A DNA stretch of 64,000 nucleotides from Clostridia bacterium (lineage in GTDB: Bacteria > Bacillota > Clostridia > RGIG6154): positions 9,192 to 73,191 of the forward strand of contig JAFQQW010000058.1 of assembly GCA_017410375.1 (NCBI GenBank), given 5' to 3'. A program made the translations under genes and the position numbers. The notes under the pieces were generated by a model. The model saw only the letters and a program-made list of their open reading frames with translations, had not been told where the DNA came from and did not search any database. How positions within the stretch are numbered: the stretch's first letter is position 1; every line of letters starts with the position of its first letter. Positions 34,833-56,988 of the stretch are shown in pieces.

Positions 34833-34902
34833 AAAACATCCTCCTTTTTTTTATTTTTTGCTTTTCTTTTGTTTTGCGCGCGCTTTATTTTTTTGCTTAA
34901 TA

Positions 34903-35922
34903 TTAAGCTTTCACTTTTTCTTTTTTAGGCTTCTTTTCTATTTTAACTTTGCTCGCATTTTTGTTTTTAATAACGTCCATAAGTACTGCTACGACGACAA
35001 TGATACCTGTTAAAACATATGTAACATACGTTGAATTTACATTTAAATTGAATCGTGCAAGTACAAAGTTAAGTCCACTTCTGATTACAACAAGCATAAT
35101 CGCACCGATTACAGAGCCGGCAATTGAAGCAGTACCGCCAGCAGCGGATGTACCGCCGATGTATACGCCTGCAATGGCATCAAGCTCCATACCATTGCCT
35201 GTTGCGGATGCTACTGTTGTAAAGGATGCTGCCCAGAAAATCGCTGCAATACCTGTTGCAATTCCTGCGATTGTATAAGCAATAATTTTGTATTTGTCTG
35301 TGTTTATACCCGAAAGCCTTGTCGCTTCTTCATTACTGCCGATTGAAAGTATGTATCTTCCAATTTTGCATTTGTACATAAGATACATACAAATCAGTGC
35401 AAACAGCAACACCCACAGCAAGCCCACAGGTACGCCGTTAAAGTTTGAAAACACTTTATTAAACCATGTTCCACCCGGGAAAAAGATATTGGGAATCGAA
35501 ACTATAATTGCACTGAGCCCTCTTCCAAACATCATTGTTCCGAGCGTAGCTATAAATGCCGGAATTTTAAGCTTAGCAACCAAAAGTCCATTTACAAAGC
35601 CAACTACGGCACCAATTGCTATCATAACAGGAATTGTAAACCCAAGAGGCATGCCGTTCATATACAGCTTACCTGCAACAACTGCTGCCGCAATGCAAGT
35701 TGTACCGATCGAAAGGTCGATACCGCCTGTTGCAATGACAAATGTAACACCAAGTCCCATAATAGCATATGGAGCCAATGACTGTGCCATACTGACTATA
35801 TTATATTTCCCTAAAAAATTTGGATTCAATATCCAGAATACAAGCACCAGAACTGCAAGCGCAGCGATGATAATCATGTTCTGCATGCTTTTCCTTACTA
35901 AAGCTGCAAATGAATTTTTCAT
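34903..35922 (-). CDS. sugar ABC transporter permease (RbsC-like)
   Basis: About 10 TM helices; GAAGGGAGAG RBS before the ATG at 35922. Confidence 0.8.
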   Translation of the reverse strand: MKNSFAALVRKSMQNMIIIAALAVLVLVFWILNPNFLGKYNIVSMAQSLAPYAIMGLGVTFVIATGGIDLSIGTTCIAAAVVAGKLYMNGMPLGFTIPVMIAIGAVVGFVNGLLVAKLKIPAFIATLGTMMFGRGLSAIIVSIPNIFFPGGTWFNKVFSNFNGVPVGLLWVLLFALICMYLMYKCKIGRYILSIGSNEEATRLSGINTDKYKIIAYTIAGIATGIAAIFWAASFTTVASATGNGMELDAIAGVYIGGTSAAGGTASIAGSVIGAIMLVVIRSGLNFVLARFNLNVNSTYVTYVLTGIIVVVAVLMDVIKNKNASKVKIEKKPKKEKVKA

Positions 35923-35953
35923 ACTATATTCTCTCCCTTCATCAAACAACTGC

Positions 35954-37453
35954 TTATTGTTCTCTCATTGTAGCATAAGCCATTATTTTTTCCTGTGTTG
36001 CATCCTTTATGTCAATCTCACCGGTTATACGACCTTCACACATTACCACAACCCTGTCACTAAGTCTCTGGATTTCTGTCAGTTCAGATGAAATCATAAT
36101 AACTGACTTGCCTTGAGATGTAAGTTCTTCCATCAAAGTATACATCTCGCTCTTTGCTCCAATATCAATACCTCTTGTGGGTTCGTCAAATATAAAAATA
36201 TCTGAATTTTCGAGAAGCCATCTTGCAATAATAACCTTCTGCTGATTTCCGCCCGAGAGATTTTTAAGCAATTGCTTCATGGAAGGAGTTTTGGTCTTAA
36301 GCTTCTCATTTTCCTTTGCCGTTTCCGCTTCGACCATTCTATCGTTAATCCATCCGAATTGAATGAATTTTTCAAGGGATGCCAGCGCTGAATTTTCCGC
36401 AACAGATTTATCAAGCATTAGCCCGTATCTTTTTCTGTCCTCCGAAAGATAACAAATGCCTCTCTTTACTGCATCCTCCGGTGTCTTGATTTTAACTTTT
36501 TCTCCATTCACGAAAATTTCACCGCTGTCAATAGGGTCTGCACCATAGATTGCACGTGCAACCTCCGTTCTTCCGGCGCCCATAAGCCCCGAAAAGCCTA
36601 ATATTTCGCCTTTTCTTAATTTGAAGCTTACATTCTTTATTTCCTTGCCTCTGGTTAAGTTTCTAACCTCAAGTACAACTTCTGCATCCTCCGGAACACT
36701 ACTTTGTTCCTTTTTATCGCCATAAATGACTCTTCCGACCATCATTTTAACGATTTCATCTTTGGTTGTATCTTTTGTCAGGGCAGTTCCTACATACTCA
36801 CCGTCGCGCATTACGGTAATCCGGTCAGAAATCCGATTGATTTCATCCATACGGTGCGAAATATATATCATGCCTATACCTTTAGCCTTAAGGTCATTCA
36901 TAATTTTAAAAAGTTCTTCAACTTCAACCTGCGTTAAGGCAGCAGTAGGTTCATCAAGAATCAGTATTTTGCAATCTCTTGAAACCGCCTTGGCAATTTC
37001 AACCATTTGCTGTTTTCCCACAGTAAGCGTACCGAGCACCGCAGAGGGGTCTATTTTAACACCGATTCTGTCAAACAACTCCTTCGCGTCCTGCTCCATC
37101 TTTTTATCGTCTATGTATATCCCCTTCACCATAGGCTCTCTGCCTATATAAATGTTTTGTGCAACCGTTAAATGATTCATCATATTGAGTTCCTGGTGAA
37201 TAATGCTTATGCCGGCGTCCTGAGACTCTTTAATGGTGCCAAATTCCACTTCCTGTCCAAAAAGACGGATTTCACCGCCGTCGCGCTTATGAATTCCGCA
37301 CAAAACCTTCATAAGAGTTGATTTTCCTGCTCCGTTCTCACCCATAAGAGCATGCACTTCGCCCTCTTCCAGCTCCAGGTTTACATTTTTCAAAGCATGG
37401 ACTCCCGAAAATCTCTTGTCTATGTCTTTCATTTCAAGAATAATCTGACCCAT
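35954..37453 (-). CDS. sugar ABC transporter ATP-binding protein with two ATPase cassettes (RbsA-like)
   Basis: Two Walker A motifs (GENGAGKS, GLMGAGRT), two LSGG signature motifs, length 499 aa. Confidence 0.9.
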   Translation of the reverse strand: MGQIILEMKDIDKRFSGVHALKNVNLELEEGEVHALMGENGAGKSTLMKVLCGIHKRDGGEIRLFGQEVEFGTIKESQDAGISIIHQELNMMNHLTVAQNIYIGREPMVKGIYIDDKKMEQDAKELFDRIGVKIDPSAVLGTLTVGKQQMVEIAKAVSRDCKILILDEPTAALTQVEVEELFKIMNDLKAKGIGMIYISHRMDEINRISDRITVMRDGEYVGTALTKDTTKDEIVKMMVGRVIYGDKKEQSSVPEDAEVVLEVRNLTRGKEIKNVSFKLRKGEILGFSGLMGAGRTEVARAIYGADPIDSGEIFVNGEKVKIKTPEDAVKRGICYLSEDRKRYGLMLDKSVAENSALASLEKFIQFGWINDRMVEAETAKENEKLKTKTPSMKQLLKNLSGGNQQKVIIARWLLENSDIFIFDEPTRGIDIGAKSEMYTLMEELTSQGKSVIMISSELTEIQRLSDRVVVMCEGRITGEIDIKDATQEKIMAYATMREQ

Positions 37454-38406: not shown

Positions 38407-39591
38407 TTAATCTCTGAAATATAAGTCTCTGGTATACACCTTATCTAAAACATCCGCAATGTCCTCCGAATAGCGGTTTGCCAGAATTACGTCGCTGATT
38501 TCCTTAAACTCTGCCAAATCACGGATTACACGGCTGTTAAAGAATTTGTCATCATGCATGGTCGGCTCATAAATAACCACCTCAATGCCCTTTGCCTTGA
38601 TACGCTTCATAACCCCCTGAATAGAGCTTTGACGGAAATTGTCCGACCCCGCCTTCATGGTCAGACGGTAAATGCCAACCGTCTTGGGTTGCTTTGCGAT
38701 AATCTGGTCTGCAATAAAATCTTTTCGGGTGCCGTTTGCCGCCACAATTGCCGAAATGATGTTTTGGGGCACATCATTGTAGTTTGCAAGCAACTGCTTT
38801 GTGTCTTTGGGCAGACAGTAGCCGCCGTACCCGAAAGAGGGATTGTTATAGTGATTGCCGATTCTGGGGTCTAAGCCAACCCCCTCGATGATGGATTTTG
38901 TGTCTAAATTCCGCACCTGTGCATAGGTATCCAACTCATTAAAGAAAGATACGCGAAGGGCTAAGTAAGTGTTTGCAAAAAGCTTTACCGCTTCTGCCTC
39001 TGTAGGGTTCATGTAGCGGATTTCAATATCCTCTTTTAAAGCCCCGTCTTTTAAAAGACCTGCAAAGGTTTCTGCCGCTTTTCTAAGGCGTGCATTCTTT
39101 ACCGGCACACCCACAATGATACGGCTGGGATACAAATTGTCATAAAGTGCTCTGCCCTCACGCAAAAATTCGGGGCTGAACAAAATGTTGTCACAGCAAA
39201 ATCTTTCCCGCACCGATTCGGTGTAGCCTACCGGCACGGTGGATTTGATAATCATCACCGCATCGGGGTTTACTGCAATCACCTGCTCGATCACACTTTC
39301 TACCGAGGACGTATCAAAATAATTTTTGTTCGGGTCATAATTTGTGGGGGTGGAGATGACAACCATATCCGCATCCTTGTACGCAGACGCCCCGTCTGTG
39401 GTTGCGGTTAAATTCAGTTCTTTTTTGCTTAAATATTCTGCAATTTCCTTGTCCTGAATGGGTGAAATGCGATTGTGAATCATATTCACCTTTTCTTCAA
39501 TAATGTCTACCGCCGTAACGGTATTTTTCTGTGCCAGAAGAACGGCAACCGAAAGTCCTACATACCCGGTGCCTGCAACTGCAATTTTCAT
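38407..39591 (-). CDS. ugd: UDP-glucose 6-dehydrogenase
   Basis: N-terminal [15 protein letters not shown]-binding motif; UDPGDH central and C-terminal regions with the catalytic-Cys context GGYCLPKD. Confidence 0.9.
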
Positions 39592-39733: not shown

Positions 39734-40468
39734 TTATTTTATACCTTTATAATCCTTCTGTACCTGTTCGTAGCTTTCTAAATTGCCGATGTCATAGCGC
39801 TTGCCGGGCATTTCCATGGCATGCACCTTAGTCTGCTGACAAAGCCATGCAATGTAGCTTCCGGGCGCGTCCACACCGCAGCCGTCGTTGATGCCCTTTT
39901 CCACAAGGCGCGCATCGTCCCTGGTATAGAAATAAAAGGGCGGGGTTGCCCAATGGGTTTCGGGATTGGGCGATTTTTCGGTCATTTTCAAAACCAAATC
40001 ATTTTCATCAACGGTTACCACACCGCATTTTAAAAGCTTCTGATCGCTTTCTTCATAGTAACGCATAATGCAGGAGGTCTGCTTTGCTTTTGCGTACTTA
40101 ATAAACTCGGTAAGCGAAAAATCCAACAGATTATCCCCTGCGATAACCAACATATCGTCATCAAGCCCTAATTGATCAATGGTAAACTGAATGTCCTTTA
40201 CCGCCCCTAAGCGGGTTTCATTGGATTCGGTGCCGTCATCCACAACTGTGATTTTCTGGCTCTTTTCAGCCGCCCAGGCATCAAAATGATGGGCAAACTT
40301 GTGGTTGGAAATCACCACATATTCGTCAATCTCACCCAAAGTGTCAATATCGTCAATCAGCCAGTCCAAAATGGTCTTGTCCTGAACCTTTAAAAGAGGC
40401 TTGGGGAAATTTTCGGTTAAAGGATACAGTCTTGTGGCATAGCCTGCCGCTAAAATCAAACATTTCAT
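39734..40468 (-). CDS. sugar-1-phosphate nucleotidyltransferase (NTP_transferase fold)
   Basis: LILAAGYATRLYPLT...PKPLL signature of sugar nucleotidyltransferases; AGGAGTG RBS before the ATG at 40468. Confidence 0.75.
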   Translation of the reverse strand: MKCLILAAGYATRLYPLTENFPKPLLKVQDKTILDWLIDDIDTLGEIDEYVVISNHKFAHHFDAWAAEKSQKITVVDDGTESNETRLGAVKDIQFTIDQLGLDDDMLVIAGDNLLDFSLTEFIKYAKAKQTSCIMRYYEESDQKLLKCGVVTVDENDLVLKMTEKSPNPETHWATPPFYFYTRDDARLVEKGINDGCGVDAPGSYIAWLCQQTKVHAMEMPGKRYDIGNLESYEQVQKDYKGIK

Positions 40469-40473
40469 ATTGT

Positions 40474-41655
40474 TCACACTCCTAATTCTGCACCGTCGGC
40501 ACTGTCACAAAAATGTACCGAGTACTTGCCCTTAAGTTCCGGGAACGCCTTTAAATATTCTTCGCTTACCTGTTGCTCAATTTTTTCTGCAAAGGCAGGG
40601 TCGATAAGCGCCATACAGCACCCCTTAAAGCCTGCACCCGAGAATCTTCCGCCGTAAATACCGTCAGTTTTGGTCATAATTTCATAAAGGGTTTTAAGCT
40701 CGGGCGAGCCGGTTTCCCAATTATAAATGGAAGAATGACCGCTTTCAAAAGAAAGCTTGCCGTAGGTTTCAATATCGCCCTTTCTCCAGGCCTCTGCACC
40801 CCTTTGCACCCGGTCAAATTCGGTGTACCAGTGCTCGGCACGCTTTGCCCAGTTTTCAGGCAGTTTTTCTTTGTATTTCAAATACACTTCATACGGAACG
40901 TGTCTTAAATTCGCTTCTTCAAATTTGCCGTACTCCATACCTGCATACGCCTGCAACGCATACGCCGCCGAACGGCATTCGTCCACTCGCATGTTAAATT
41001 TGGAGCCTGCAAGGGTTCTTTCCACGCCTGAAAACAGCACCATAAGCTTATAGGGCTTCATGTTGGGATTTGTGTCAATCAACTCAAAGCTGTCGTCCAT
41101 TGTATCTAAGTACAAAAGCTTATCCTTTTTGGAAAACACTTCGCAAGACTGGTCCAGCTTACCACAAGAAACACCCACATATTTATTTTCCGCTTCCTTT
41201 GCAGTGAGTATCATTTCAATCGGAGAAAGGGTTACATTGTTCACCTTACAAAGTGCGGACAAAAACGCAATGATAACCGCCGCCGAGGAAGATAAGCCCC
41301 CGATAGGCAAGCTACCCTCAATCACACCGCAAAGCCCGATTTCTAAGTTTCTTCTTTTGGCAAGGGCCAGTGCCGCACCGCGCAGATAATCTGCCCAGTC
41401 GTTCTGCTTTTCCTTTGGAATGGACGATACATGGAACTGCGCACGCTTGTCAAATTGCAGGGAATTTAATTCAATGACCCCGTTCTGTTTGGGACGGTAG
41501 GCGATATGAATGCCCTTGTCAATGGCAAAGCCCGTAATTTTGCCCAACTGATGGTCGCTGTGGGCACCAATGGGGCAAATGCGGTAAGGACAAAAGGCAA
41601 GCGCCTCCGCTTCTCTGTGATAAATTTCAAAAAACTTCTCCTGACATCTCATCAT
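40474..41655 (-). CDS. GHMP-family sugar-1-kinase, galactokinase-like
   Basis: Galactokinase signature R.CPIGAHSDHQLG and GHMP ATP-binding motif PIGGLSSSAAV. Confidence 0.8.
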   Translation of the reverse strand: MMRCQEKFFEIYHREAEALAFCPYRICPIGAHSDHQLGKITGFAIDKGIHIAYRPKQNGVIELNSLQFDKRAQFHVSSIPKEKQNDWADYLRGAALALAKRRNLEIGLCGVIEGSLPIGGLSSSAAVIIAFLSALCKVNNVTLSPIEMILTAKEAENKYVGVSCGKLDQSCEVFSKKDKLLYLDTMDDSFELIDTNPNMKPYKLMVLFSGVERTLAGSKFNMRVDECRSAAYALQAYAGMEYGKFEEANLRHVPYEVYLKYKEKLPENWAKRAEHWYTEFDRVQRGAEAWRKGDIETYGKLSFESGHSSIYNWETGSPELKTLYEIMTKTDGIYGGRFSGAGFKGCCMALIDPAFAEKIEQQVSEEYLKAFPELKGKYSVHFCDSADGAELGV

Positions 41656-41673
41656 AACTTATATTAACTCCAA

Positions 41674-42741
41674 TTATAAATAGAATTCTTTATACCATTT
41701 TGCAAATTTTCTTAATCCCTCTCGAAGTGACGTGGACGGCTTAAAGCCAAAGTCCGCTTCCAAAGCAGAGGTGTCTGCATAGGTTACCGGCACGTCACCC
41801 GGTTGCATGGGTACTAACTTTTTGTGTGCATCAAAATCAAAATCCTTCGGAAGCACGCCGGCACCTACTAATTCCTGCTGCAGAATATCCACAAAATCCA
41901 GTAAATTTTCGGGTGAGTTGTTGCCGATGTTATATACCGCATAGGGCGGAAGCGGTAAGCCGTCCTCCCCTGCTTTTTTCTCGGGTGCACACGCCATAAC
42001 ACGCATCACACCCTCTACAATATCGTCCACAAAGGTAAAATCACGCTTGCAGTTGCCGAAATTGAAAATTTCAATGGTGTCGCCTTTAATCAGCTTATTG
42101 GTAAAGCCGAAATATGCCATATCGGGACGTCCTGCAGGGCCGTAAACGGTAAAGAACCGAAGCCCCGTGGAAGGAATGTTATAAAGCTTTGAATAGGAGT
42201 GTGCCAGAAGCTCATTGGACTTCTTGGTTGCCGCATACAGCGACACGGGATTGTCCACCTTATCGTCTGTGGAATAGGGAATTTTTTTGTTCGAACCGTA
42301 AACCGAGGAACTGGAGGCATACACCAAATGCTCTACAGGATGGTTTCTGCACGCCTCTAAAATGTTGTAAAACCCGATTAAATTGGACTCAATATACACA
42401 TCGGGATTGGTAATGGAATACCGCACCCCTGCCTGTGCCGCAAGGTTTACCACCACATCAAATTTGTGTTCTTCAAATAAGCCCTCCAGCATCACTTTAT
42501 CTGCAATATTGCCCTTTACAAAGGTCCATTTTGCGTTATGCTTTGCCTGCTCCTTTTCAATTTCGGTTAAACGGTACTCTTTGATAGACACATCATAGTA
42601 ATCGTTCATGTTATCCAACCCCACAATATGCATGGGCGTATCGGTTTTCATGAGCGATAACACCAAATTTGCACCAATAAAGCCTGCCGCACCGGTTACC
42701 AGTATGGTTTTGTTTTCAAAGCTTACATTCTTTTCTCTCAT
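41674..42741 (-). CDS. NAD-dependent epimerase, UDP-glucuronate 4-epimerase-like (Cap1J/GlaE type)
   Basis: TGAAGFIG Rossmann motif, LDNMNDYYD, YxxxK context; next to ugd; TAAGGAGT RBS before the ATG at 42741. Confidence 0.8.
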   Translation of the reverse strand: MREKNVSFENKTILVTGAAGFIGANLVLSLMKTDTPMHIVGLDNMNDYYDVSIKEYRLTEIEKEQAKHNAKWTFVKGNIADKVMLEGLFEEHKFDVVVNLAAQAGVRYSITNPDVYIESNLIGFYNILEACRNHPVEHLVYASSSSVYGSNKKIPYSTDDKVDNPVSLYAATKKSNELLAHSYSKLYNIPSTGLRFFTVYGPAGRPDMAYFGFTNKLIKGDTIEIFNFGNCKRDFTFVDDIVEGVMRVMACAPEKKAGEDGLPLPPYAVYNIGNNSPENLLDFVDILQQELVGAGVLPKDFDFDAHKKLVPMQPGDVPVTYADTSALEADFGFKPSTSLREGLRKFAKWYKEFYL

Positions 42742-42755: not shown

Positions 42756-45725
42756 TCAAAATTCCAACGAACAACCCCACACATCAATGCTGTTGTCCTG
42801 GAACACTTCTTTTAATCGTTTGTGTACGGCTTCCTTGGTCACGCCTTTTTTTAAGATAACCTGTAAGAATCCGCCACCGCCTGCACCGCAGATGAGCTTA
42901 CCGCAAATTAAATCCTCTATGGATGCAAAAATCTGGTCAATCAGGGTATTTGTAGAGCCTGCATCTACCATTTGAGAAAGCTCCCAATGGCGGTTTAACA
43001 GCTTTGCAAACTCGTCCACATTGCCACGTTCTAATTCAAATCGCATGAGCACTGCCACACGCTGAATTTCGTTTAAGGCATACAGCGAATCGGGCTGATT
43101 GCCCACATATCTGCCGACCACATCCCGAAGCAGGTTTCTGGCAAGTCGTCTTTGTCCCGTATAGATTAACGCAAACCGTTCGTTTAATTCCTTTTTGGTT
43201 TGTTCATCAATTTCCACATGCTCTACCTTTAATTGCTGATTAAGTGCAGGACGGGAAGTGATGTATTTAATGCCGCTTGTGACACCGCCCACCTGATCCT
43301 GCCAGCCACCGCCTGTGGACATAATCTGTTCCATGCAAAGCACATGGCTGTAGAGCATATCCTCGGTAAACGCAATGCCCATAAACTCAAACACAGCTTT
43401 CACGCATGCAGCAGACAGAATAGAGGACGTACCAAGTCCCGAGCCTTTGGGTACATTGGTTACCTCGGAATGCATTTCAAACCCACCACCGAGACGGGTT
43501 AAAATCTCCTCTAAATTGTGTCCCTCTTTGGGAATGATACCGCATGCCAGAAGTGCCGCCTTTTGCAACGCAAAGGGGTCATAAGGGTCACCTGTTTGCT
43601 GTAAAGGCTCAATGGTATCAAATTCTCCGTGCACATCCATGTCCCGGCTGTCAAACACAATTTTCTTTTCGGGAATCTTGATTAAAGTCACTTCCACAGG
43701 CTTTTCGCCGTTTAAGAAGATTGCCGCATTTAATACTGTACCGCCGTTTTCCATGCAGTAAGGCGGCGTATCGCTCCAGCCACCGCCCCAGTTGACTCTT
43801 AAGGGCAGTTTTACGGTGTGCTTATCCTTTGCAATTTTACAGGTTTCATTAAATTTAAGATTATTCAGGGTTCCTTTTAAAATGCCCTCCTGAATGGTTT
43901 TAAAGCATTTGGCAATGAATTTTTCACCCTCGGCACCGCCTAAAGCTACACCGATGTAATAGTAAAGACGCATCGCCATAGAGAAATCCGCCTGCGCCAG
44001 TCTGCGCTCTAACCATTCCTGCTGAATGCAGGTTAATTTGTCTGCCTGAAGCAGTTTTTTCGCGTCCTCCGCAGGCACTTTTGCTTTGATAAGCTTGACC
44101 AAACCGTCCATGCAAACCAACTCATGCATGCGCTGATTCCAGTCAATAATGGCTTTGGGGTCTGCATGGTTAAAGCCTGACGATAAGCTTTGTCTTTCCG
44201 CCTTGCGCCATGCCTCTTTATCCCCCTTACCCTGCGCCATAGCATACACGTTAAGTGCTGCTGCAACCGCATCTTTAATGTTGTCGCAAGCAGGATATAA
44301 ATTCGCCATCCATAGGGTATGATTGTCTGACCCCCAGATATCGGTTTCTTTTAAACCGTTTTTCTCTAAAAACACCTCTAAACTCTGTCCAAAGAACATA
44401 TTTTCTTTGGGATTATCGGTCACGCCGTAAATGCGTGCCACAAATTTCCCATCCTTTTGCTTTAAGCCGTGCAGAACCACATTATCAGGCACCGTTTCGT
44501 CATGAATGTCAATGTAAGACAGCACCACATTGTTGCCCACCTTCGCATCATGATGCACATACGAAACCTCTAAATAGCAGTTTTCGCCAATTTCCGCTTC
44601 ATCCGAAAGTACGCTGTTGTAGCCACCTGCATTTTTGGTGATACTGCTATTGACCTGTCTGCTCCAGCCCAAATCCTTGTAATTTTCAACGCCCTCTGCC
44701 ATAAGCTCCATAATTTCACGGGTAGTACCGAAATGAATAAACTTGGCAGGTGCTAAACGCAAAAGCTTCATGCGGAAAGGTCTTAAAGCTTCCCACACCT
44801 TTTGTCTTGCTTCTTTTAATTCTGCACAAAACTCACCTTCGGGTGCTTCATTATAAAACTGTTCCAAAGTAGAGTCGCTCGCCAAAGGATATAAGAAATC
44901 ACCATACAAAGAAAGACGAACCGTTTCGTTTACAAAAGCATCAAATTTACCTTCTTCGGCAATAAGTCCGAAAAGGGCTTTTAACATATCGGCAGAGAAA
45001 ACAACTGCACCGGTATCAATATCTACCGCACCGCGTTCATTCACCGCGCCTTGTTCGGTTAAAGTTTCCACCGTTTGCTTGTGCAGGAATTTACGCACAT
45101 TGCCGTCCTCACCATTTAAAAATACGCCGTGGTTTTTGCCGGTTTGAACATCTTCTTTAAAGGAAATTGCCGCAGCACCTACTCCGGAATAGTCAATCTG
45201 CAGGGGATTAAACAATAGCAAAACATCGCCCGACAAAAGCAACATCCCTTCACGGATGCGCGAAGGCACAGAAGACATACAAATCATAAATTCATCAAAC
45301 AAAGTAGATGCTCTGCCGTCGGGCAAAGTATGAGGTACAGGCGAAAACAGTTTTCCAAGCGCAGAATACTGTGGTACTCGCTTACTGTCACCGCCACTAT
45401 GAATAACCAGAATTTTCAGATTTTTAAAATCAGTTGTTTTTGCGTGTTCCGAAATATATTTCAACACGCCCAAAGTTGCACCGCCCGAGCCGACACGTTT
45501 ACCTTCGGGGTCGGGAATGACCGCAAAATGAGTTTCAGACGGAAGCATACCATTTTTCTGTCTGTCTTCAATTTGCATCATAAACCCCTCTGCCTGCTTT
45601 TGGTTGGATGCAGTAAGCACCACATAATCCCACCCGGCAAATCCGGCTTTGGTCAAAGAGCGGTTATAGTCATCCCAGGTATCTTTATAGGATTGTGATA
45701 AGAAAAGTGATGTCATATTTTTCAT
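42756..45725 (-). CDS. fkp: bifunctional L-fucokinase / fucose-1-phosphate guanylyltransferase, Fkp-like (989 aa)
   Basis: N-terminal FPGT-like domain (GWDYVVLTASNQKQAEGF), C-terminal GHMP kinase (PKGSGLGTSSILSAACV); the length matches the 949-aa Bacteroides Fkp. Confidence 0.75.
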   Translation of the reverse strand: MKNMTSLFLSQSYKDTWDDYNRSLTKAGFAGWDYVVLTASNQKQAEGFMMQIEDRQKNGMLPSETHFAVIPDPEGKRVGSGGATLGVLKYISEHAKTTDFKNLKILVIHSGGDSKRVPQYSALGKLFSPVPHTLPDGRASTLFDEFMICMSSVPSRIREGMLLLSGDVLLLFNPLQIDYSGVGAAAISFKEDVQTGKNHGVFLNGEDGNVRKFLHKQTVETLTEQGAVNERGAVDIDTGAVVFSADMLKALFGLIAEEGKFDAFVNETVRLSLYGDFLYPLASDSTLEQFYNEAPEGEFCAELKEARQKVWEALRPFRMKLLRLAPAKFIHFGTTREIMELMAEGVENYKDLGWSRQVNSSITKNAGGYNSVLSDEAEIGENCYLEVSYVHHDAKVGNNVVLSYIDIHDETVPDNVVLHGLKQKDGKFVARIYGVTDNPKENMFFGQSLEVFLEKNGLKETDIWGSDNHTLWMANLYPACDNIKDAVAAALNVYAMAQGKGDKEAWRKAERQSLSSGFNHADPKAIIDWNQRMHELVCMDGLVKLIKAKVPAEDAKKLLQADKLTCIQQEWLERRLAQADFSMAMRLYYYIGVALGGAEGEKFIAKCFKTIQEGILKGTLNNLKFNETCKIAKDKHTVKLPLRVNWGGGWSDTPPYCMENGGTVLNAAIFLNGEKPVEVTLIKIPEKKIVFDSRDMDVHGEFDTIEPLQQTGDPYDPFALQKAALLACGIIPKEGHNLEEILTRLGGGFEMHSEVTNVPKGSGLGTSSILSAACVKAVFEFMGIAFTEDMLYSHVLCMEQIMSTGGGWQDQVGGVTSGIKYITSRPALNQQLKVEHVEIDEQTKKELNERFALIYTGQRRLARNLLRDVVGRYVGNQPDSLYALNEIQRVAVLMRFELERGNVDEFAKLLNRHWELSQMVDAGSTNTLIDQIFASIEDLICGKLICGAGGGGFLQVILKKGVTKEAVHKRLKEVFQDNSIDVWGCSLEF

Positions 45726-45758
45726 CGTTTTCTCCTCATTTCAATTTATATATTGAGC

Positions 45759-47318
45759 TTATTTTGCGTGTTTAAGAAAGCGGGAAAATAAAAGTGTTTT
45801 CGCCATTTTAACAGTTTCTTTCAAATAATTGTTTCGCGCAAACACCAAAAGCAGGAATGCTGCGGTCAAAACGGCAGTAAACCCTGCGCGCAACACAAAT
45901 GCGACCAAACTCGTTTTCATACCGAATACCAAGAAATTCAGTTTGTACATCAAGAATGCCCCTGCCGCCGCAATCAGCAGATACGCCGCATTTTTGGAAT
46001 AATAAAGCCACACATTGCGTTGCAAAGCGTGTTTATACACAATCAAAGGCTCCACCCAAAAGGTAACCAGAATGTTACTGATTAACGTACCTGCCAAAAC
46101 GCCGAACACACCGTAATGGCGTACCAATATCAGCGAAACAATCAGATTCATAATAGATTCAATAAACACTCTGTATCTGTCCTGCCAGAACAGACCACAG
46201 GCAGATTTAAATTGTTCAGCTGTCTTCTGCACACCCAGGAAATAAAAGTTTGCCGTAACAATCAGCACAACCTCAATACCCATACAGTAAGTTTTACCCA
46301 ACCAAAGTGCTATAAAGGGTTCAAACAGGCAAATCATACAAATACTACAGAAAGCATGAATGAAATAATTAACAAAATATGTATGGCAGAATACATCATA
46401 CAACCTCTGTTTGTCGGCACTTTTTTCAGATGCATTCAGATTACCGATGCTTGCCGTCAAAGAAGAGGTAAACATCATGGTGAAATTGTTTAACGCATTT
46501 TTAATAACAAGATAGTTAGAATAAAAACCTGCCGAAGCAACATTTACACAAGAAGCAATAATAAAGCTGTCGGTGCAGTTAATAATCAGACTCCCCGCGC
46601 GATTGAACACCAACGCAGTGGTATTTTTGACAATATTCTTTTTGTCTTCGGGGTCAACAGGATTCACCTTACCACCAAAAAATTGCGGATACAGCTTTTT
46701 GGCTTTATATGAAACAAATCCGTATATAACGGTATTCTGTAAGGACTGCAGTGCGAGATATACCATATATTTCTTTGTCAGGAACAAGAAGAAAATCTCC
46801 AGAATATTAATTGCCGCAACACTGACTATTTTGACTTTTGAAACAATGTACGATTTTTGGTGTGCAACAATCACACATTGCTTGTCTGCAAAAAAATAGA
46901 AAGAAACCGTGCTGAGCAACATAAAAAGATAAATTACGTAAAGATTTTCAGGGATATCCGGCGTTTCTTTCAGCAAAGAATCCAAAAACGGCATCAAAGC
47001 CAGCCCGATACACAGCACCACAACGCCTATTATATAATAACACGTTCTGTACAAGCGGAACAATGTACGGCATTTTTCGGTATCCCCATCCGCAATAGGC
47101 TTGTACACACTGTATGTAATGGCAGTCCCGATACCCACATTTACGATTTCAATCATATTGATGATGTTTAAGAAAACCGCATCAATCCCCAAATAATTCT
47201 GCCCCAAAAATTTGATAAAAAATGTTCTGGTAACAAATGGCAAAATTGTAATCAAGAGTGTATTCAACATGCCGTATTTTAAATTTTGAAACGAACTATG
47301 CGTTCTGCTTTCCGCCAT
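45759..47318 (-). CDS. wzx: polysaccharide flippase Wzx (MOP/MATE-like polysaccharide biosynthesis protein)
   Basis: About 14 TM helices; N-terminal loop pattern of Wzx/RfbX. Confidence 0.75.
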   Translation of the reverse strand: MAESRTHSSFQNLKYGMLNTLLITILPFVTRTFFIKFLGQNYLGIDAVFLNIINMIEIVNVGIGTAITYSVYKPIADGDTEKCRTLFRLYRTCYYIIGVVVLCIGLALMPFLDSLLKETPDIPENLYVIYLFMLLSTVSFYFFADKQCVIVAHQKSYIVSKVKIVSVAAINILEIFFLFLTKKYMVYLALQSLQNTVIYGFVSYKAKKLYPQFFGGKVNPVDPEDKKNIVKNTTALVFNRAGSLIINCTDSFIIASCVNVASAGFYSNYLVIKNALNNFTMMFTSSLTASIGNLNASEKSADKQRLYDVFCHTYFVNYFIHAFCSICMICLFEPFIALWLGKTYCMGIEVVLIVTANFYFLGVQKTAEQFKSACGLFWQDRYRVFIESIMNLIVSLILVRHYGVFGVLAGTLISNILVTFWVEPLIVYKHALQRNVWLYYSKNAAYLLIAAAGAFLMYKLNFLVFGMKTSLVAFVLRAGFTAVLTAAFLLLVFARNNYLKETVKMAKTLLFSRFLKHAK

Positions 47319-47320: not shown

Positions 47321-48619
47321 TTACCTCCTTTTCAATTTCCGCGTGGTTTTTTGATTAACATAATCTATGATGTAGGGCGAAGCCGGCACCATAAAAAGAA
47401 TACATGTAGGAATGATAAAATTTAACATAACGGGCTGTGCAACATACATAATAAAGAAGATAATATACAAAGCCGTATATTTGCAGTTTAAATTTAATTT
47501 TTCAAACCCCTTTTTGATAGTTTCAGCCATTTTGTAGTAAAAAACACCCATAGCCGCAGTGAACCAAAATCCATATCTTGCCATATCCGAGAACAACTGC
47601 GAATGTTCGTGCACAACATATGTACCGTTGCCCGCCCCCTGATAGTAAGAGCCAACCCCGAGACCATAGGTGTTGAAGAAAGTCTCCAAGTCCCACAGCC
47701 AACGGTCGCTTCGTGCCGCCATATCACCGGTCGCCTCACCGCCAATCAGCGAGCTGCCCATATCATAAACCTTCCAGGATATATAGTGATTTTCAATGTG
47801 TGTTGCCGCTTCCTGTAACCACGCACCAACAACACTTTTAAAAAACAGCAAGAAAGCAAGCGAAAAAATAGTCACCACAAATTTGGTTGCAGGCGTTCTG
47901 TTTTGCAAAATAACCAAAACAGGCGCAAGAAAAGCGCAAACAAAAACAGTACCGGTTGAGCAAATAAGTGCAAGACAAAAACAAATGATAACAATAATCC
48001 AAGCCGCCACTCTCACCCAGCATTTTTTTAAGCATTTGCCTTGTAACATACACAAAAGCATTGTACCGATCAGAATAGAGCAGTAAATATGATGCACATT
48101 ACCGATATTTTTGAAATAGTTTTCCGCTATCATGTCGGTTTGACTTGAAAATTCACGATAGGATGCCGGATTTTCAATAAGACCGAGCAATGTTGTAAAA
48201 AGCGTAAACGCAAATGCAAGAAAAACAACGCACCCCAAAGAACCGAGCGCTTGCTTTTTATCGGTATAATAATAGTAATAGTATACAAGAAATACATACC
48301 ACGGTCCTGCAATCATAATAAACATTTCTGCCGCGTTACCGATACCAAGCAAGGCAAAATATACATATATCCCGATAAAAAGGAATGCCAGCACACCACA
48401 TATTGTTCCGTTAAAAAACCAGTTTGGTCTTAAAAAGTAACTTGTGCAAAACCATCCGCCCATAACGGTTGCCATGATAAGCGTATACAAACCACCCAAA
48501 AGGGGCGCTTGTACAATAGGCACAATCATCAAAAAGATGGATACCATTGCAAAAAAGTAATTGGAAAACAGCCAGAATTTTTCACTGAAATCTGCTTTTC
48601 TTTCCAAATTGTACATCAT
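47321..48619 (-). CDS. wzy: oligosaccharide repeat-unit polymerase, Wzy-like
   Basis: Polytopic membrane protein with one large extracytoplasmic loop, in a wzx-wzy context. Confidence 0.5.
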   Translation of the reverse strand: MMYNLERKADFSEKFWLFSNYFFAMVSIFLMIVPIVQAPLLGGLYTLIMATVMGGWFCTSYFLRPNWFFNGTICGVLAFLFIGIYVYFALLGIGNAAEMFIMIAGPWYVFLVYYYYYYTDKKQALGSLGCVVFLAFAFTLFTTLLGLIENPASYREFSSQTDMIAENYFKNIGNVHHIYCSILIGTMLLCMLQGKCLKKCWVRVAAWIIVIICFCLALICSTGTVFVCAFLAPVLVILQNRTPATKFVVTIFSLAFLLFFKSVVGAWLQEAATHIENHYISWKVYDMGSSLIGGEATGDMAARSDRWLWDLETFFNTYGLGVGSYYQGAGNGTYVVHEHSQLFSDMARYGFWFTAAMGVFYYKMAETIKKGFEKLNLNCKYTALYIIFFIMYVAQPVMLNFIIPTCILFMVPASPYIIDYVNQKTTRKLKRR

Positions 48620-48628: not shown

Positions 48629-49741
48629 TCATTTACATCTATACTTAATTTTTCGGTATAACCACACTTTAAAGGGCGGCGACACCGTATATTTTTTCAA
48701 TTTCTTCAAAATATTTTCCGCACTTAATCCTTCAAAAAAGGCGTCTCTCTCTTTGTGCATTGCTATATTCTGATGTTGTTCCATGGCGGTATGTTCTATT
48801 TTTTTCACACGACAATCTTCTTTTGCCGCTTGCAGCAATGCCTCACCTTTCGAGGTGTGCACAATGGCTTTTCCTGTGCCTCTCTCATCCGCGAAAGTCG
48901 CATCATATTTGGCAATATCAAAGAAATCACCTATCGTTATATCCGATGCGTGCATTTTATCCTGCGCACTGCAGGTATAACAACTTTTACGCAAAAACAG
49001 ATTCTGCAGATACCCGCGCATATACAAATCGTCCTGATGATATTTGCAATATCTGACTTTTGCCGACTGAATGCGTACACTGTACGCCCGCCAGGAAATA
49101 CGCTTATCCCGAAACGCGATTTTTTCAGGTCTCCCTTTGGCAATTTTCCGACTGTAAAAATCAAAAACTTTCGGACTGCCTACACCGTGGCATAAAAAAT
49201 CCACAAGGTACACATTGTCACGCGCACCCAAAAACGCTTTAACTGCACCAATCTGGCAAGGTGTTCCGCAAATCAGAACTTTCTCGCCTGCATCCGCCTT
49301 TTCTTTCAGAAGCGGTAATGCATCGTAAAGATTGCTTTGTACATATTTGGAACCAAGCAGTTTTGCGAGCTCGTTTTGGTTATTTGCCGCCTGATGGGAA
49401 AGCATACCTTTCTCATCAAATGCCGCACCGAACACGGTGCCGCCCTGCCCGATGATCCACATCGCCAAAGCAGAAAACATCCCGCCCGAAGAAGATTTTT
49501 GCAATACTTCAGGGGATTTATGTACCGTTGCGTACACACTTTCCCGAATGTCCGTCTGTACCGTCTTTTGCAAGGCAACGCAGTTGCGCATACATTTACC
49601 GCATTGTGTACATCGCGTACCGACTATCTCCGGATATAAAAATCCCTCTGTATTTTCTCGCATGATTATCGCCTGTGCGGGACAACCTTCGGCACATACA
49701 CCGCAACCGACACATTCATTTTCGGGCAAACGGATATTCAT
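48629..49741 (-). CDS. coenzyme F420 hydrogenase/dehydrogenase beta-subunit-like Fe-S protein (polysaccharide pyruvylation-associated)
   Basis: N-terminal 2x[4Fe-4S] ferredoxin motifs CVGCGVCAEGCP / CTQCGKCMRNC; partner of the pyruvyl transferase. Confidence 0.7.
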   Translation of the reverse strand: MNIRLPENECVGCGVCAEGCPAQAIIMRENTEGFLYPEIVGTRCTQCGKCMRNCVALQKTVQTDIRESVYATVHKSPEVLQKSSSGGMFSALAMWIIGQGGTVFGAAFDEKGMLSHQAANNQNELAKLLGSKYVQSNLYDALPLLKEKADAGEKVLICGTPCQIGAVKAFLGARDNVYLVDFLCHGVGSPKVFDFYSRKIAKGRPEKIAFRDKRISWRAYSVRIQSAKVRYCKYHQDDLYMRGYLQNLFLRKSCYTCSAQDKMHASDITIGDFFDIAKYDATFADERGTGKAIVHTSKGEALLQAAKEDCRVKKIEHTAMEQHQNIAMHKERDAFFEGLSAENILKKLKKYTVSPPFKVWLYRKIKYRCK

Positions 49742-49752: not shown

Positions 49753-50922
49753 TTATAATAATTCCTTCAACGCCTTTGCGGCGGTATATGCATTTTCAAC
49801 ATATTCGGGCATAATTTCCTGCAAATGTGCACGAACTTCCTCTTTTTTGTCATCCAACGCACGGTATGCCTGTGTAAGTTCATCCTTGCCGTGCATATCT
49901 TTCATGGAAATGACATATCCTTGCTCGGTGCCAAACAAATCCCGTGCAATGCCGACAGATTTTATGCTGTACCCGATAACCAATGTAGGCACACACATCG
50001 CGTATGCCGAAATGGAAGAATGGGTTCTTGCACAAATTAACATTTCACATTTGGAAATGATATCCCGAAGCTGTGCATATTTATAATCAGTACCGATTAT
50101 TTTCACACGTCCGGTATGTACATATTGGTCAAACAGTGGTTTCATACAAGCATAGTCGCTGTTTCCGTCAAAATTTACATGTGGAATAAACAAAATATTT
50201 TTTTCGGTATCATTTAAAATGTATTCAATCAGATTCTGCACCGATTTAAGTACATCTGCATTTTTGCCGCCCTGCGTAACAATGGGACTGAAATTGATGC
50301 CCACCGTATTGGGTTCCACCTCAAATTTACTGTCTTCCTTCTGAATGGTAAAAGCGGGATCGGACACCCGTACCACCTTTGCATTTTTCAATTTTCCGGA
50401 CAACGCATTAAAGGTTTCTTCTTCGCGTGCGGTAATCAGTGCATAGCCGTCCAAATCAGCAATCATGGCATCATTTAAAAATGCCGCATCCACACTGCAC
50501 CCCCACAAGACACGTTTAAAACCGGCCTTGTCAATCAAACGGTTACTGTAATACAACCATGCAGGCGTTTCGCAACAATAGTTGTCCCCGCCAATGGACA
50601 TGAACACTGTATCCTTCGGTTGTTTTTGGATACTCTTTTTAAAATTCGGATATGTTTTTCTTGCCACAATTTCTTCATCTTTAAAGAATTTACGCCAAGC
50701 ACCGTAAATTTTACGCAAAAACTTGTTTTTTGTATAACTGTCGGGATAAATTTCTTTTATTGTTCCCTTTGGAAGAAAACGATCATCCGCCGCCTTTTCC
50801 AGACTGGAAAGCACAAATTCGTTATCCTCTTTGCCAATCATATTTACGCTGGACACCACAATGGCTTCACAACCATGGTTATTACATCCGCCATGTCCGT
50901 ACATATAATATCTTTTTTTCAC
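49753..50922 (-). CDS. polysaccharide pyruvyl transferase (WcaK/CsaB family)
   Basis: N-terminal YGHGGCNNHGCEAIV (GxxNxGDxAI-like) motif of PS_pyruv_trans. Confidence 0.75.
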   Translation of the reverse strand: MKKRYYMYGHGGCNNHGCEAIVVSSVNMIGKEDNEFVLSSLEKAADDRFLPKGTIKEIYPDSYTKNKFLRKIYGAWRKFFKDEEIVARKTYPNFKKSIQKQPKDTVFMSIGGDNYCCETPAWLYYSNRLIDKAGFKRVLWGCSVDAAFLNDAMIADLDGYALITAREEETFNALSGKLKNAKVVRVSDPAFTIQKEDSKFEVEPNTVGINFSPIVTQGGKNADVLKSVQNLIEYILNDTEKNILFIPHVNFDGNSDYACMKPLFDQYVHTGRVKIIGTDYKYAQLRDIISKCEMLICARTHSSISAYAMCVPTLVIGYSIKSVGIARDLFGTEQGYVISMKDMHGKDELTQAYRALDDKKEEVRAHLQEIMPEYVENAYTAAKALKELL

Positions 50923-52037
50923 AGCTTATTCACCTCATCAAAAATTGCTTGCATTTCCGCTTCCAGATCGGTTGCGTTGTGCTTGGCTTTGCACGCCGCA
51001 TACGCTTTGTCGAAATCGATTTCCCCGGCCATAGCGTTACGTAATGCATCGGCACAGCTTTTCGGGTCGTCTTTGCGATACGCAAATACATGCCCATACA
51101 TAAATTCTTTTAAATTGTCATAATCTGGCACAACAATCGGCTTTCTTGCCGCACACGCCTCATATATCAATCGCGTCTGATGCGCCTTAGTCGGCGAAAA
51201 CAGTACCGTATCACAAGCTGCATACAATTGTTCCACCTGTTGTGTAGGCGGAACAATTTCAATTTTGTCTGCAAGACCATGCTTTCGTATATACATAAGA
51301 CAAGTTTTGGCATAACTTTGTGCCTGTGCTTCTTCAAAGGTTTTGGAAGAAACAATTAACAATTTACAGTTTTCTGTTTCTTTCAATGCTTTTAATGCCG
51401 TCAATGTTCCCTTCAATCGATTGATACCACCCAGAAACAGTATCTTTTTGGGGTTGTCGGAATTTAAAAAGCCTTCCTGCTTGTCATACAAATCAAAATC
51501 CACTTTATCATATAAAACAGTTTTAAAAATATCTGACTTGTCGAAAAAGTGCATATCATATGCCGAAATGAACACCAACCCATCAAAATGTGCTGCCATT
51601 TGTTTACGGATATGTGATGCATACAGAGTGTCCGGCAAAGTTTCCCTTTGCAGACAAATGGCTTTCTTGCCATATTTCTTTGCAATCGCCCCTGTATAAA
51701 ATAAGGTAAGTGAATTGGCAATCACCAAATCACAATCACTATTTTTAATACAATTTTCTATGATTTTTTTCGTTTTGCACACATGGCGCATGGAACTCCA
51801 GAATGAGGGCGACAACAGATTGGTCACACCACCGTTATAGTAAGGATTTGACATAACCCACGGCACACGTTGCACCGAAAAACCATCCTTTTCCAAACGT
51901 TTGCATGTATCTTCAGGCTTGGTTGTGTTTAAAAAGGAAACGGAATCTCCACGATTTTTAAGTGCATTTGCCAACTGCATCATGCTGACTGAAGAACCGC
52001 CCCACACACCTGCGTGATTGATAAAAAGAATCTTCAT
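50919..52037 (-). CDS. glycosyltransferase family 4 (GT-B)
   Basis: N-terminal MKILFINHAGVWGG and a C-terminal E-x7-E-type region. Confidence 0.75.
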   Translation of the reverse strand: MKILFINHAGVWGGSSVSMMQLANALKNRGDSVSFLNTTKPEDTCKRLEKDGFSVQRVPWVMSNPYYNGGVTNLLSPSFWSSMRHVCKTKKIIENCIKNSDCDLVIANSLTLFYTGAIAKKYGKKAICLQRETLPDTLYASHIRKQMAAHFDGLVFISAYDMHFFDKSDIFKTVLYDKVDFDLYDKQEGFLNSDNPKKILFLGGINRLKGTLTALKALKETENCKLLIVSSKTFEEAQAQSYAKTCLMYIRKHGLADKIEIVPPTQQVEQLYAACDTVLFSPTKAHQTRLIYEACAARKPIVVPDYDNLKEFMYGHVFAYRKDDPKSCADALRNAMAGEIDFDKAYAACKAKHNATDLEAEMQAIFDEVNKL

Positions 52038-52951
52038 TATTTTTTGCCCCGTTTCAGTAATTTCCTTATTTTTTTCTTCCAGCGGAGCATAAGGGGTCGA
52101 CGGAATATTTGTGCAACCGCCTTTTCAATGCGCGCGTCTAATTCTACATTTTCAAAACGCACTTTTCCCTTATTTTCGTTAATTTCCGTATCAAAACGGG
52201 TATCTGCGCTGCTTACATGTACGCCCGACCCGTCGTTTCCGCCGTTGGAAACCAATGTTTCTTTCGGCAAAACAAAAAGCATATCATTTTTAAAGGCGTT
52301 ATATGTAAAACGAATTGCCCAGGAATCAATTCTGCCTTCCATTTGCGACATCAGCATCTCGGTTCTGTCGCAACCGGTTTTATTAAAAGCTTTAACTTGC
52401 TTTTTATCTTTTATAAATGTTTTATAGTCACGGATTTCCCAGTCGATTTTTTCCCAACGGTCTTTCCAGGTCGCCCAGGCATAACTGGAACCCCTGCCCA
52501 TCACAAAAACATCATGTTTATAATCAGCAGGGAAGGTTATGGGCAATGTGTATCCGCCCAACGCCCAGATTTTTTGATTGTCACGATAAAATTCCAAACC
52601 TCTGTTCATATAATCCAGAAAATCTTCCGAAACCACGTTATCATCTTCCACAACAATCACATTGCCGTGCTTGCCGATAACATTGTTTACACCCGAAATA
52701 ACCGAGTTTGCCAGCCCCTGGTTTTGGGGAGCTTCCACAACCTCTACTTCGCCAAACCATTCTTTGATCGCATCGGAACGGATATATTCCCGCACCTGCT
52801 CCACTTTTTCGGCAACCTTTTCATTTTTAGGACCATCCGAAAAAATATACAACTTGCTTTCCTTTGCTTCAGGACATTTTGAAAGAGAGGTCAGCAATCT
52901 TTTTGCGTGGTCCGCTCTGTTATAAACAAAAACAACAATTGGTGCTTTCAT
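52037..52951 (-). CDS. putative GT-A-fold glycosyltransferase
   Basis: VVEDD DxD-like motif after a Rossmann-like N-terminus; TAGGAGC RBS before the ATG at 52951; family unclear. Confidence 0.45.
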   Translation of the reverse strand: MKAPIVVFVYNRADHAKRLLTSLSKCPEAKESKLYIFSDGPKNEKVAEKVEQVREYIRSDAIKEWFGEVEVVEAPQNQGLANSVISGVNNVIGKHGNVIVVEDDNVVSEDFLDYMNRGLEFYRDNQKIWALGGYTLPITFPADYKHDVFVMGRGSSYAWATWKDRWEKIDWEIRDYKTFIKDKKQVKAFNKTGCDRTEMLMSQMEGRIDSWAIRFTYNAFKNDMLFVLPKETLVSNGGNDGSGVHVSSADTRFDTEINENKGKVRFENVELDARIEKAVAQIFRRPLMLRWKKKIRKLLKRGKK

Positions 52952-53074
52952 AATTTTGCTCCTATCTGTCGCCGAACAAACTATATGCTTTGGACGACAA
53001 TTTCTTAATCCGCATAAAGCGGGCAATATGTCACGCACCGTCTTCCGACACAGCGGCTGACATATTCACTTAAA

Positions 53075-53973: not shown

Positions 53974-53985
53974 ATCCTTTCCGTT

Positions 53986-56983: not shown

Positions 56984-56988
56984 ATGTA

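Follow-up and report, generated by a model that had tools for sequence, protein, structure and literature searches.

Can a member of the Clostridia build free L-fucose into its surface polysaccharide by the route known from Bacteroides? This question is raised by a 64,000-nucleotide stretch of contig JAFQQW010000058.1 (positions 9,192 to 73,191, assembly GCA_017410375.1), hereafter the window. Its source is a Clostridia (Oscillospirales-like) metagenome-assembled genome (MAG), most closely related to MAGs of Acutalibacteraceae, Oscillospiraceae, and Faecousia recovered from animal guts. At window positions 42756-45725, on the minus strand, lies a gene for a 989-aa homolog of the bifunctional L-fucokinase/GDP-L-fucose pyrophosphorylase (FKP). 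In Bacteroides, Fkp places host or dietary fucose on capsules and glycoproteins, aiding gut colonisation (PMC8068183). An earlier annotation made from the letters of the window (the sequence-only reading) had proposed a Bacteroides-type Fkp inside a polysaccharide operon. Judging from sequence and gene context, we consider it likely that the protein is a functional bifunctional FKP, making GDP-fucose from free L-fucose for the surface polysaccharide of its operon. In doing so we infer that the enzyme is active, that L-fucose is its physiological substrate, that the operon's transferases use its product, and that the fucose comes from outside the cell.

The gene is intact. A single open reading frame (ORF) of 989 aa begins with an ATG at 45725, preceded at a distance of 6 nt by a GAGGAG ribosome-binding site (45732-45737, minus strand). 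The sequence-only reading had named the ORF, without its strand, and had quoted two motifs, both of which we located: GWDYVVLTASNQKQAEGF at aa 31-48 (nt 45582-45635) and PKGSGLGTSSILSAACV at aa 759-775 (nt 43401-43451). The second includes the glycine-rich phosphate loop PKGSGLGTSS (aa 759-768). Plant FKGP and animal FPGT have an N-terminal strand of the WDxIV(L/I)TA type, like the WDYVVLTA strand of the window protein, which follows an N-terminal extension of ~31 aa. The proposed Fkp architecture, an N-terminal guanylyltransferase followed by a C-terminal GHMP kinase, also held up. The Pfam family Fucose_pyrophosphorylase (PF07959) matched aa 100-481 (E 5.5e-93, 312.6 bits versus a cutoff of 34), while GHMP_kinases_N (PF00288, aa 742-812) and GHMP_kinases_C (PF08544, aa 897-975) both exceeded their cutoffs. 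From these matches and the retained residues described below, we place the predicted GDP-fucose pyrophosphorylase (GFPP/FPGT-like) domain at about aa 1-555 (44061-45725, minus strand) and the predicted GHMP-type L-fucokinase domain at about aa 570-989 (42756-44018, minus strand), both boundaries being approximate. Weak Pfam matches to hexapeptide or left-handed beta-helix families at aa 359-403 fit with the left-handed beta-helix in the N-terminal half of the Bacteroides fragilis enzyme, BfFKP (Lin et al. 2025, PMC11982464).

Comparison with solved structures and curated models pointed to the same family. The best relatives in a PDB sequence search were the BfFKP entries 5yys and 9iit (E ~9e-71). 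With E 1.4e-58 for the C-terminal domain of BfFKP (9iip) versus ~1e-21 for heptose kinases, the kinase half sides with FKP rather than with GHMP kinases for other sugars. The HddA heptose kinase model NF049969 scored 97.3 bits, below its cutoff of 600. The NCBIfam Fkp model NF009948 aligned to aa 63-972 (E 1e-144). An identical protein is present in NCBI nr as "bifunctional fucokinase/L-fucose-1-P-guanylyltransferase". By its predicted architecture, a guanylyltransferase fused to a GHMP kinase, the protein belongs to the FKP family in the broad sense, and it is an already correctly annotated member of a known and widespread family.

The sequence-only reading had suggested alignment to B. fragilis Fkp, which we carried out at the level of individual residues. 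Functional residues were those defined on BfFKP by Lin et al. 2025 (PMC11982464) and on TxFKP by Smith et al. 2025 (PMC12732313). Our BfFKP reference was the 949-aa protein of a B. fragilis locus (L091), which was retrieved with a BfFKP fragment rebuilt from HMMER output and has the marker residues at their published positions. One alignment comprised the window protein, BfFKP, and 67 close relatives; 87 diverse full-length representatives were aligned separately. Identity to BfFKP was 26%, and the catalytic residues of both active sites were retained. Specifically, 34 of 35 reliably aligned catalytic or ligand-contacting residues of BfFKP were identical or conservatively replaced in the window protein. 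The same residues were retained in 63-67 of the 67 close relatives; for the diverse representatives, the figure was 76-87 of 87 at the core positions involved in catalysis or sugar contact.

In the pyrophosphorylase site the matching pairs (BfFKP/window) were D31/D72, G38/G79, S39/S80, H73/H109, G75-G76/G111-G112, S78/S114, R80/R116, K89/K125, D136/D167, V137/V168, H168/H199, G169/G200, K187/K216, F270/F329, and H272/H331. The N-terminal domain therefore has the FPGT catalytic residues on which the earlier proposal depended (D72, G111-G112, R116, K125, D167, K216, and H331). Two substitutions were found in this site, R79 to K115, which is conservative, and Q186 to H215; in each case the new residue is the one found in the majority of the window protein's lineage. 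In the kinase site the pairs were R592/R643, W599/W650, D601/D652, T602/T653, G717/G765, S719-S720/S767-S768, E751/E799, G759/G807, Q761/Q809, D762/D810, and A900/A948, such that all of the fucose-contacting kinase residues (R643, W650, D652, T653, Q809, and D810) were kept. The counterpart of M645 in relatives was non-conserved, and the position of BfFKP S6 shifted on the window protein with the alignment. The non-catalytic third GTP/GDP site of BfFKP (K300/N311/N493) corresponded to S355/A366/E553 or S361/N370/G541 depending on the alignment, with K300 and N493 conserved in neither.

These comparisons bear on whether one domain might be catalytically dead, leaving a monofunctional kinase or pyrophosphorylase, or a regulator. 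The lower identity of the N-terminal half to BfFKP (22%), the replacement of R79 by Lys, and a third GTP site that is not clearly kept could all be read in this way. There is also a precedent, as many eukaryotic Clade C FKPs are without equivalents of G75, R79, and K88, and possible loss of activity has been raised for them (Smith et al. 2025, PMC12732313). However, the residues whose mutation abolishes or cripples the activity of BfFKP or TxFKP (D31, H73, G75/G76, R80, D136, H168, K187, and H272) are retained, as are the kinase counterparts of R592, W599, D601, E751, and D762, and the R79K change is both conservative and the majority state in the lineage. We regard a dead domain as highly improbable. 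As far as its residues tell, the window protein is a predicted two-activity enzyme of a known family, found in a familiar kind of setting.

The retained residues suggest how the two reactions would proceed. The C-terminal GHMP kinase domain would phosphorylate beta-L-fucose at C1 with ATP. D810 would serve as the general base, the transferred phosphate or transition state would be stabilised by R643 together with the glycine-rich loop (759-768), and W650, D652, T653, Q809, and D810 would bind fucose. The N-terminal nucleotidyltransferase domain would convert fucose-1-phosphate and GTP to GDP-beta-L-fucose. In this step H331 would have two roles, acting with K216 on the sugar phosphate and with D167 in binding Mg2+; R116 and K125 would act on the leaving pyrophosphate, and D72 would read the guanine. 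The FKP gene would share a transcript with Wzx and with genes for nucleotide-sugar formation, all lying at the 3' end of a Wzx/Wzy exopolysaccharide operon. Neither gmd nor fcl was found in the window, and because these genes are not in view FKP would be the operon's own source of GDP-fucose, carrying fucose from the lumen, presumably scavenged from the diet, into the repeat unit. An operon glycosyltransferase would consume the GDP-fucose on the cytoplasmic face, followed by flipping by Wzx and polymerisation by Wzy.

Relatives of the gene provided evidence on the substrate. We sampled 80 genome loci having FKPs 64-77% identical to that of the window and clustered the ORFs within 6 kb of FKP. 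These loci belong mostly to Acutalibacteraceae, Oscillospiraceae, Faecousia, Blautia, Lachnospiraceae, and unclassified Clostridia from animal and human guts. The commonest neighbour of FKP was a gene for a ~145-aa protein of the RbsD/FucU family, present in 22 of the 80 loci and usually directly downstream on the same strand. It occurs in the closest relatives (L003, L004, L006, L007, and L008), in L012, L053, and L072, and in 14 further loci. Its Pfam match had an E-value of 4e-34, and its sole NCBIfam match was L-fucose mutarotase, at 107 bits versus a cutoff of 141. Gene orders vary, with FucU either upstream of FKP or downstream of it, as FKP-FucU or FKP-epimerase-FucU. The de novo GDP-fucose genes gmd, fcl, and manC adjoin FKP in 9 of the 80 loci, including that of cultured Blautia wexlerae, and also in L087/L088; gmd passes the TIGR01472 cutoff (513 versus 415), and fcl scores 479 versus a cutoff of 500. 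Either companion, FucU-like or gmd/fcl, was found in 30 of the 80 loci.

The mutarotase would supply the beta-anomer used by the kinase. No other feature of the gene context argues as strongly for L-fucose and GDP-L-fucose in this lineage as the mutarotase-like gene and the de novo GDP-fucose genes combined. Hence, because FucU-like or gmd/fcl/manC genes flank FKP, the lineage appears to handle both compounds. We found no description of the FKP-FucU pairing in the literature examined. As an aside, one sampled locus (L039) comes from a MAG labelled Victivallales, and it combines an FKP 70% identical to that of the window with a FucU-like protein 99% identical to that of L060, from an uncultured rumen bacterium. 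This near-identity suggests a binning error or recent transfer.

The same chemistry could nonetheless act mainly on another sugar with the L-galacto configuration at C2-C4, with L-galactose (from plant RG-II or agar-type glycans) or D-arabinopyranose giving GDP-L-Gal or GDP-D-Arap for the polymer, much as Leishmania AFKP80 handles D-arabinose. BfFKP accepts D-arabinose and L-galactose, and the pocket around its C5 substituent is spacious (PMC11982464), while TxFKP turns over D-arabinose faster than L-fucose (PMC12732313). The distance of the window protein from BfFKP would leave room for such a change, and its operon is without FucU and adjoins plant-glycan hydrolases. However, every fucose-contacting residue is kept, including V168 and F329, which are modelled against the C6 methyl of fucose. 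Moreover, the Km of BfFKP for the alternatives is 70-100 times higher than for fucose (PMC11982464), and FucU-like or gmd/fcl genes flank FKP in the 30 loci just described. An alternative substrate is disfavoured by the conserved pocket and the synteny in relatives, and we rate it as distinctly unlikely compared with L-fucose.

The lineage to which these relatives belong is large. At least 5069 FKP homologs at E ≤ 1e-5 were found among 8000 candidates scored in a word-indexed search, and an exhaustive search gave 1134 representatives of 50%-identity clusters at E ≤ 1e-30, so that chance resemblance can be dismissed. From these matches the lineage is estimated to have thousands of close relatives in Clostridia. 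Representatives of ~1050-1100 aa were considered as plant FKGPs and rejected, as they are bacterial (Latescibacterota and Brocadiia). Horizontal acquisition of the window's gene was likewise rejected for want of a GC signal, the gene having a GC content of 45.1%, compared with 42.4% in the operon and 43.8% across the window.

We next consider whether the GDP-fucose would serve the operon in which the gene lies. ORFs and Pfam matches define a co-directional block on the minus strand from 63451 down to 38407, with FKP near its 3' end and gaps mostly ≤ 36 nt. The claim of a Wzx/Wzy polysaccharide operon in a Firmicute was sustained, as the block has a Bac_transf gene, several glycosyltransferases, a Wzx-like flippase (45759-47318; ~10 hydrophobic segments and a weak MatE match), and a Wzy-like polymerase candidate (47321-48619; 432 aa, ~10 transmembrane segments in a scan, and no Pfam match). 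The flippase gene lies 33 nt upstream of FKP. A short-chain dehydrogenase/reductase (SDR) epimerase of the UDP-glucuronate 4-epimerase type lies 14 nt downstream (41674-42741). Adjacency of Wzx and FKP recurs among the sampled relatives in a cluster of 7 loci (c11, median offset -37 nt), and polysaccharide-assembly genes were found within the fetched flanks of at least 47 of the 80 loci. In addition, the abundant human-gut cluster P0107 heads a Wzz/tyrosine-kinase/LytR locus.

A genuine L-fucose FKP might instead serve other glycoconjugates, such as proteins or other capsule loci, or recycling, with its place at the 3' end of the operon resulting from modular shuffling. The immediate neighbourhood of FKP is not conserved, with the genes downstream of it in the window common to only 5-8 of the 80 loci. 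Some relatives lie outside polysaccharide loci, about 33 of the 80 having no match to the assembly panel. No glycosyltransferase of the operon was linked to GDP-fucose, and in Bacteroides Fkp feeds several capsules as well as glycoproteins (PMC8068183). On the other side stand the tight co-directional packing of FKP between a flippase and sugar-nucleotide genes, the recurrence of the Wzx-FKP pair in cluster c11, and the position of FKP in or beside assembly genes in most of the sample. We consider this alternative unlikely, although less so than a change of sugar, and favour use of the GDP-fucose by the operon itself.

The glycosyltransferase that would use GDP-fucose is less clear. As the sequence-only reading had noted, no operon protein matched the GT10 or GT11 families in Pfam (PF00852 and PF01531), and the HxRRxD motif was absent from the nine glycosyltransferase, Wzx, and Wzy proteins of the operon that we scanned. 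GT2 also includes bacterial fucosyltransferases (Forrester et al. 2025, PMC12595478), which makes these absences uninformative about fucosylation. The sequence-only reading had also placed the fucosyltransferase among the three genes at 52037-54900, which was not borne out for two of them. The first is a 304-aa orphan (53986-54900, minus strand) without a Pfam, NCBIfam, or PDB sequence match and with 24 relatives among 5.8 billion clusters. Its AlphaFold model, built with a 22-sequence alignment, has a predicted local distance difference test (pLDDT) score of 94 and the fold of a GT8-like retaining UDP-sugar glycosyltransferase of the GT-A type, with an invariant DSD motif; a single-sequence model reached a pLDDT of 35. 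The orphan looks like an unannotated glycosyltransferase family. A fucosyltransferase role is disfavoured by this model and by the fact that the orphan is part of a conserved 5' core of the operon, which recurs in operons without FKP in the fetched stretch.

The second is a GT-A (GT2/GNT-I-like) protein of 304 aa from an internal Met (52037-52951, minus strand), with more than 1600 relatives. Four loci chosen through this protein (L176-L179) have its homologs near pyruvyl transferase and UDP-glucose 6-dehydrogenase (Ugd) genes and have no FKP or gmd/fcl within 10 kb. Given such neighbours, none of them a GDP-fucose gene, a fucosyltransferase role is unsupported for this protein. Three of the four loci (L176, L178, and L179) contain trios of Polysacc_synt_2 with Polysacc_syn_2C, Epimerase with Polysacc_synt_C, and Epimerase_2, which we take to be an FnlA/FnlB/FnlC-like pathway of the UDP-N-acetyl-L-fucosamine type; its product, like fucose, would be a 6-deoxy-L-galacto sugar. 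Between the two 304-aa proteins lies a weak GT-D-like ORF (53075-53809, minus strand; 53075-53985 with the 176-nt gap after which it starts, at a TTG). The identical metagenomic contig L001 has two overlapping genes here, of 75 and 238 aa. This may be a frameshifted or decaying, possibly truncated, glycosyltransferase gene. A PDB sequence search with the GT-A and GT-D-like proteins returned no WrtF, NodZ, HpFucT, or other fucosyltransferase. A GT4-type (Glycos_transf_1) protein at 50919-52037 is a possible fucosyltransferase candidate.

The rest of the operon also lies on the minus strand. Its conserved 5' core (54897-63451, gaps ≤ 21 nt) encodes, in order of transcription, a DegT aminotransferase, a Bac_transf initiating transferase, a PylC-like ATP-grasp protein, an AMP-binding-like protein, two GT4 glycosyltransferases, a TupA-like ATP-grasp protein, and a further GT4 glycosyltransferase. 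Similar blocks occur in five other loci (L171-L173, L176, and L177), the AMP-binding-like protein being confined to the window. The presence of two ATP-grasp ligases suggests, speculatively, that a uronic acid or an amino sugar is decorated through an amide link, for instance with an amino acid. Pfam matches identified a polysaccharide pyruvyl transferase (49753-50922) and an FrhB-like Fe-S protein (48629-49741) upstream of the Wzy candidate. The block ends with Ugd (38407-39591, with a 394-aa start taken from the gene call on L001). The SDR epimerase has a Pfam Epimerase match and matches PDB entry 5u4q (E 4e-109) and Bacillus cereus entries 6zl6/6zld (E 3e-41), all of which we take to be enzymes of the UDP-GlcA 4-epimerase type. 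Ugd and the epimerase probably make UDP-GalA together.

This epimerase also forms part of a three-gene module (39734-42741, minus strand) with a GalK-like anomeric kinase (40474-41655) and an NTP-transferase (39734-40477; 247 aa, 244-247 aa across module members) whose gene overlaps that of the kinase by 4 nt. The module occurs with and without FKP and was also found in L057, L072, L008, L044, L171, and L179. The kinase scored just under the galactokinase cutoff (202.7 versus 226.65), and its galactose-binding signature is YRICPIGAHSDH where E. coli GalK presumably has GRVNLIGEHTDY; the replacement of Glu by Ala is seen in all five orthologs. The module probably serves to salvage a sugar that is not galactose and may be galacturonate; a literature search for a bacterial galacturonate kinase found nothing relevant. 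More broadly, the operon polymer might be fed by scavenged sugars, with fucosylation perhaps strictly dependent on lumen fucose entering through FKP, as no gmd/fcl or FucU is in view, and with a second plant-derived sugar (e.g., galacturonate) entering through this trio, such that diet-derived monosaccharides set the composition of the capsule. This wider idea is tentative and, on balance, rather doubtful. If both salvage modules were to hold, the Bacteroides Fkp paradigm would extend to Firmicutes and to a second sugar.

Pfam matches downstream of the operon comprise a YgjV-like protein, a CUT2-type sugar ABC transporter, GH43, GH78 rhamnosidase, and GH39 proteins, and GalT. The transporter, which comprises a substrate-binding protein, a permease, and a double ATPase, adjoins the 3' end of the operon at 33795-37453 on the minus strand, and its import of salvaged sugars is only a possibility. 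The GH43, GH78 alpha-L-rhamnosidase, and GH39 genes follow at 25493-31954 (minus strand), in agreement with the rhamnogalacturonan- and arabinan-type hydrolases noted by the sequence-only reading. Farther away, at 19154-24136 on the minus strand, lies a gene for what is probably a large protein of the cell surface; of its 1660 aa, only an N-terminal segment was assigned to a domain, Cu_amine_oxidN1 (copper amine oxidase N-terminal-like). Phage-type genes occupy the edge of the window (426-2808, minus strand); the large subunit of a terminase exceeded its Pfam cutoffs, and a portal-like match was weak and fell short of its cutoff.

Several observations count against an FKP supplying this operon with GDP-fucose. 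Identity to BfFKP is low in both halves of the protein, at 22% for the pyrophosphorylase half and 32% for the kinase half, and the Fkp equivalog model NF009948 (PRK13412) scored 483.2 bits, short of its curated cutoff of 721. A scan of the window's proteins found no FucU, fucosidase, or recognisable fucose transporter, and gmd/fcl elsewhere in the genome could make FKP only an auxiliary source of GDP-fucose. The window has no assignable fucosyltransferase, with the GT4 genes and the GT-D-like ORF as candidates that may fill this role. The 80 loci are mutually related, and the synteny counts taken from them represent non-independent events, although the order of FKP and FucU is not the same in all of them. 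Finally, our literature search found no biochemically characterised Firmicute FKP. Because of the 26% overall identity and the score below the equivalog cutoff, we do not regard the window protein as a Bacteroides-type ortholog. It instead represents a divergent lineage outside that ortholog group, though one that should work alike.

For the window gene our analysis is mainly confirmatory, as the database annotation was already right. Its wider interest lies in a distinct and very large FKP lineage that gut Clostridia commonly carry, among them Oscillospiraceae, Acutalibacteraceae, Faecousia, Blautia, and Lachnospiraceae. Its genes are often found in capsule or exopolysaccharide loci and often paired with a fucose mutarotase-like gene or with those for de novo GDP-fucose synthesis. 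Provided that these enzymes are active, the salvage of fucose into surface glycans would not be confined to Bacteroidota, and fucose-alkyne should label many Firmicutes as well. The lineage would also offer biocatalysts for making GDP-fucose that have so far gone unused.

How does the window protein compare with known systems? FKPs have been divided into Clade A, of plants (AtFKGP) and bacteria, Clade B, of Bacteroidota (BfFKP and TxFKP) and trypanosomatids, and Clade C, of eukaryotes, with plant proteins nested inside the bacterial FKPs of Clade A, which include 'Cluster one' (Smith et al. 2025, PMC12732313). The characterised FKPs named there are BfFKP, TxFKP, AtFKGP, and Leishmania enzymes, and Firmicutes or Clostridia are not named in the text or supplement of that study. 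BfFKP (PDB 5YYS, 9IIT, 9IIP, and 9IIS; 949 aa) has the same order of N-terminal pyrophosphorylase with a beta-helix, linker, and C-terminal GHMP kinase. It agrees with the window protein in the residues for catalysis and ligand binding at both active sites and has a setting that is alike in outline, namely a gut anaerobe with surface-polysaccharide genes. The window protein differs in its 26% identity and below-cutoff score, its N-terminal extension of ~31 aa, the R79K and Q186H substitutions, and a third GTP site that is not clearly conserved, as well as in its Clostridia host and the location of its gene inside a Wzx/Wzy operon. TxFKP of Thermophagus xiamenensis (Clade B) has the mutationally validated residues G75, R79, K88, R597, D606, and D767 where the window protein has G112, R116, K125, R643, D652, and D810 (PMC12732313). 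It is 51% identical to BfFKP and belongs to the Bacteroidota clade, whereas the window protein falls outside that clade.

Arabidopsis AtFKGP (1055 aa) is a bifunctional FKP like the window protein. The Leishmania major enzymes AFKP80 and FKP40 are also bifunctional members of the family, but they are bacterially acquired and belong to Clade B; the additional activity of AFKP80 on D-arabinopyranose sets a precedent for the alternative substrate considered above (PMC5481574). In the HddA/HddC heptose system (3k85 and 4n3o), a GHMP anomeric kinase likewise feeds a GDP-sugar to a capsule, although it is the weaker match to the window protein (E ~1e-21, 97 bits versus a cutoff of 600) and consists of two separate proteins without PF07959. 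Mammalian FCSK/FUK and FPGT carry out the same two reactions with homologous domains (PF07959 and GHMP), but on separate polypeptides rather than fused as in the window protein.

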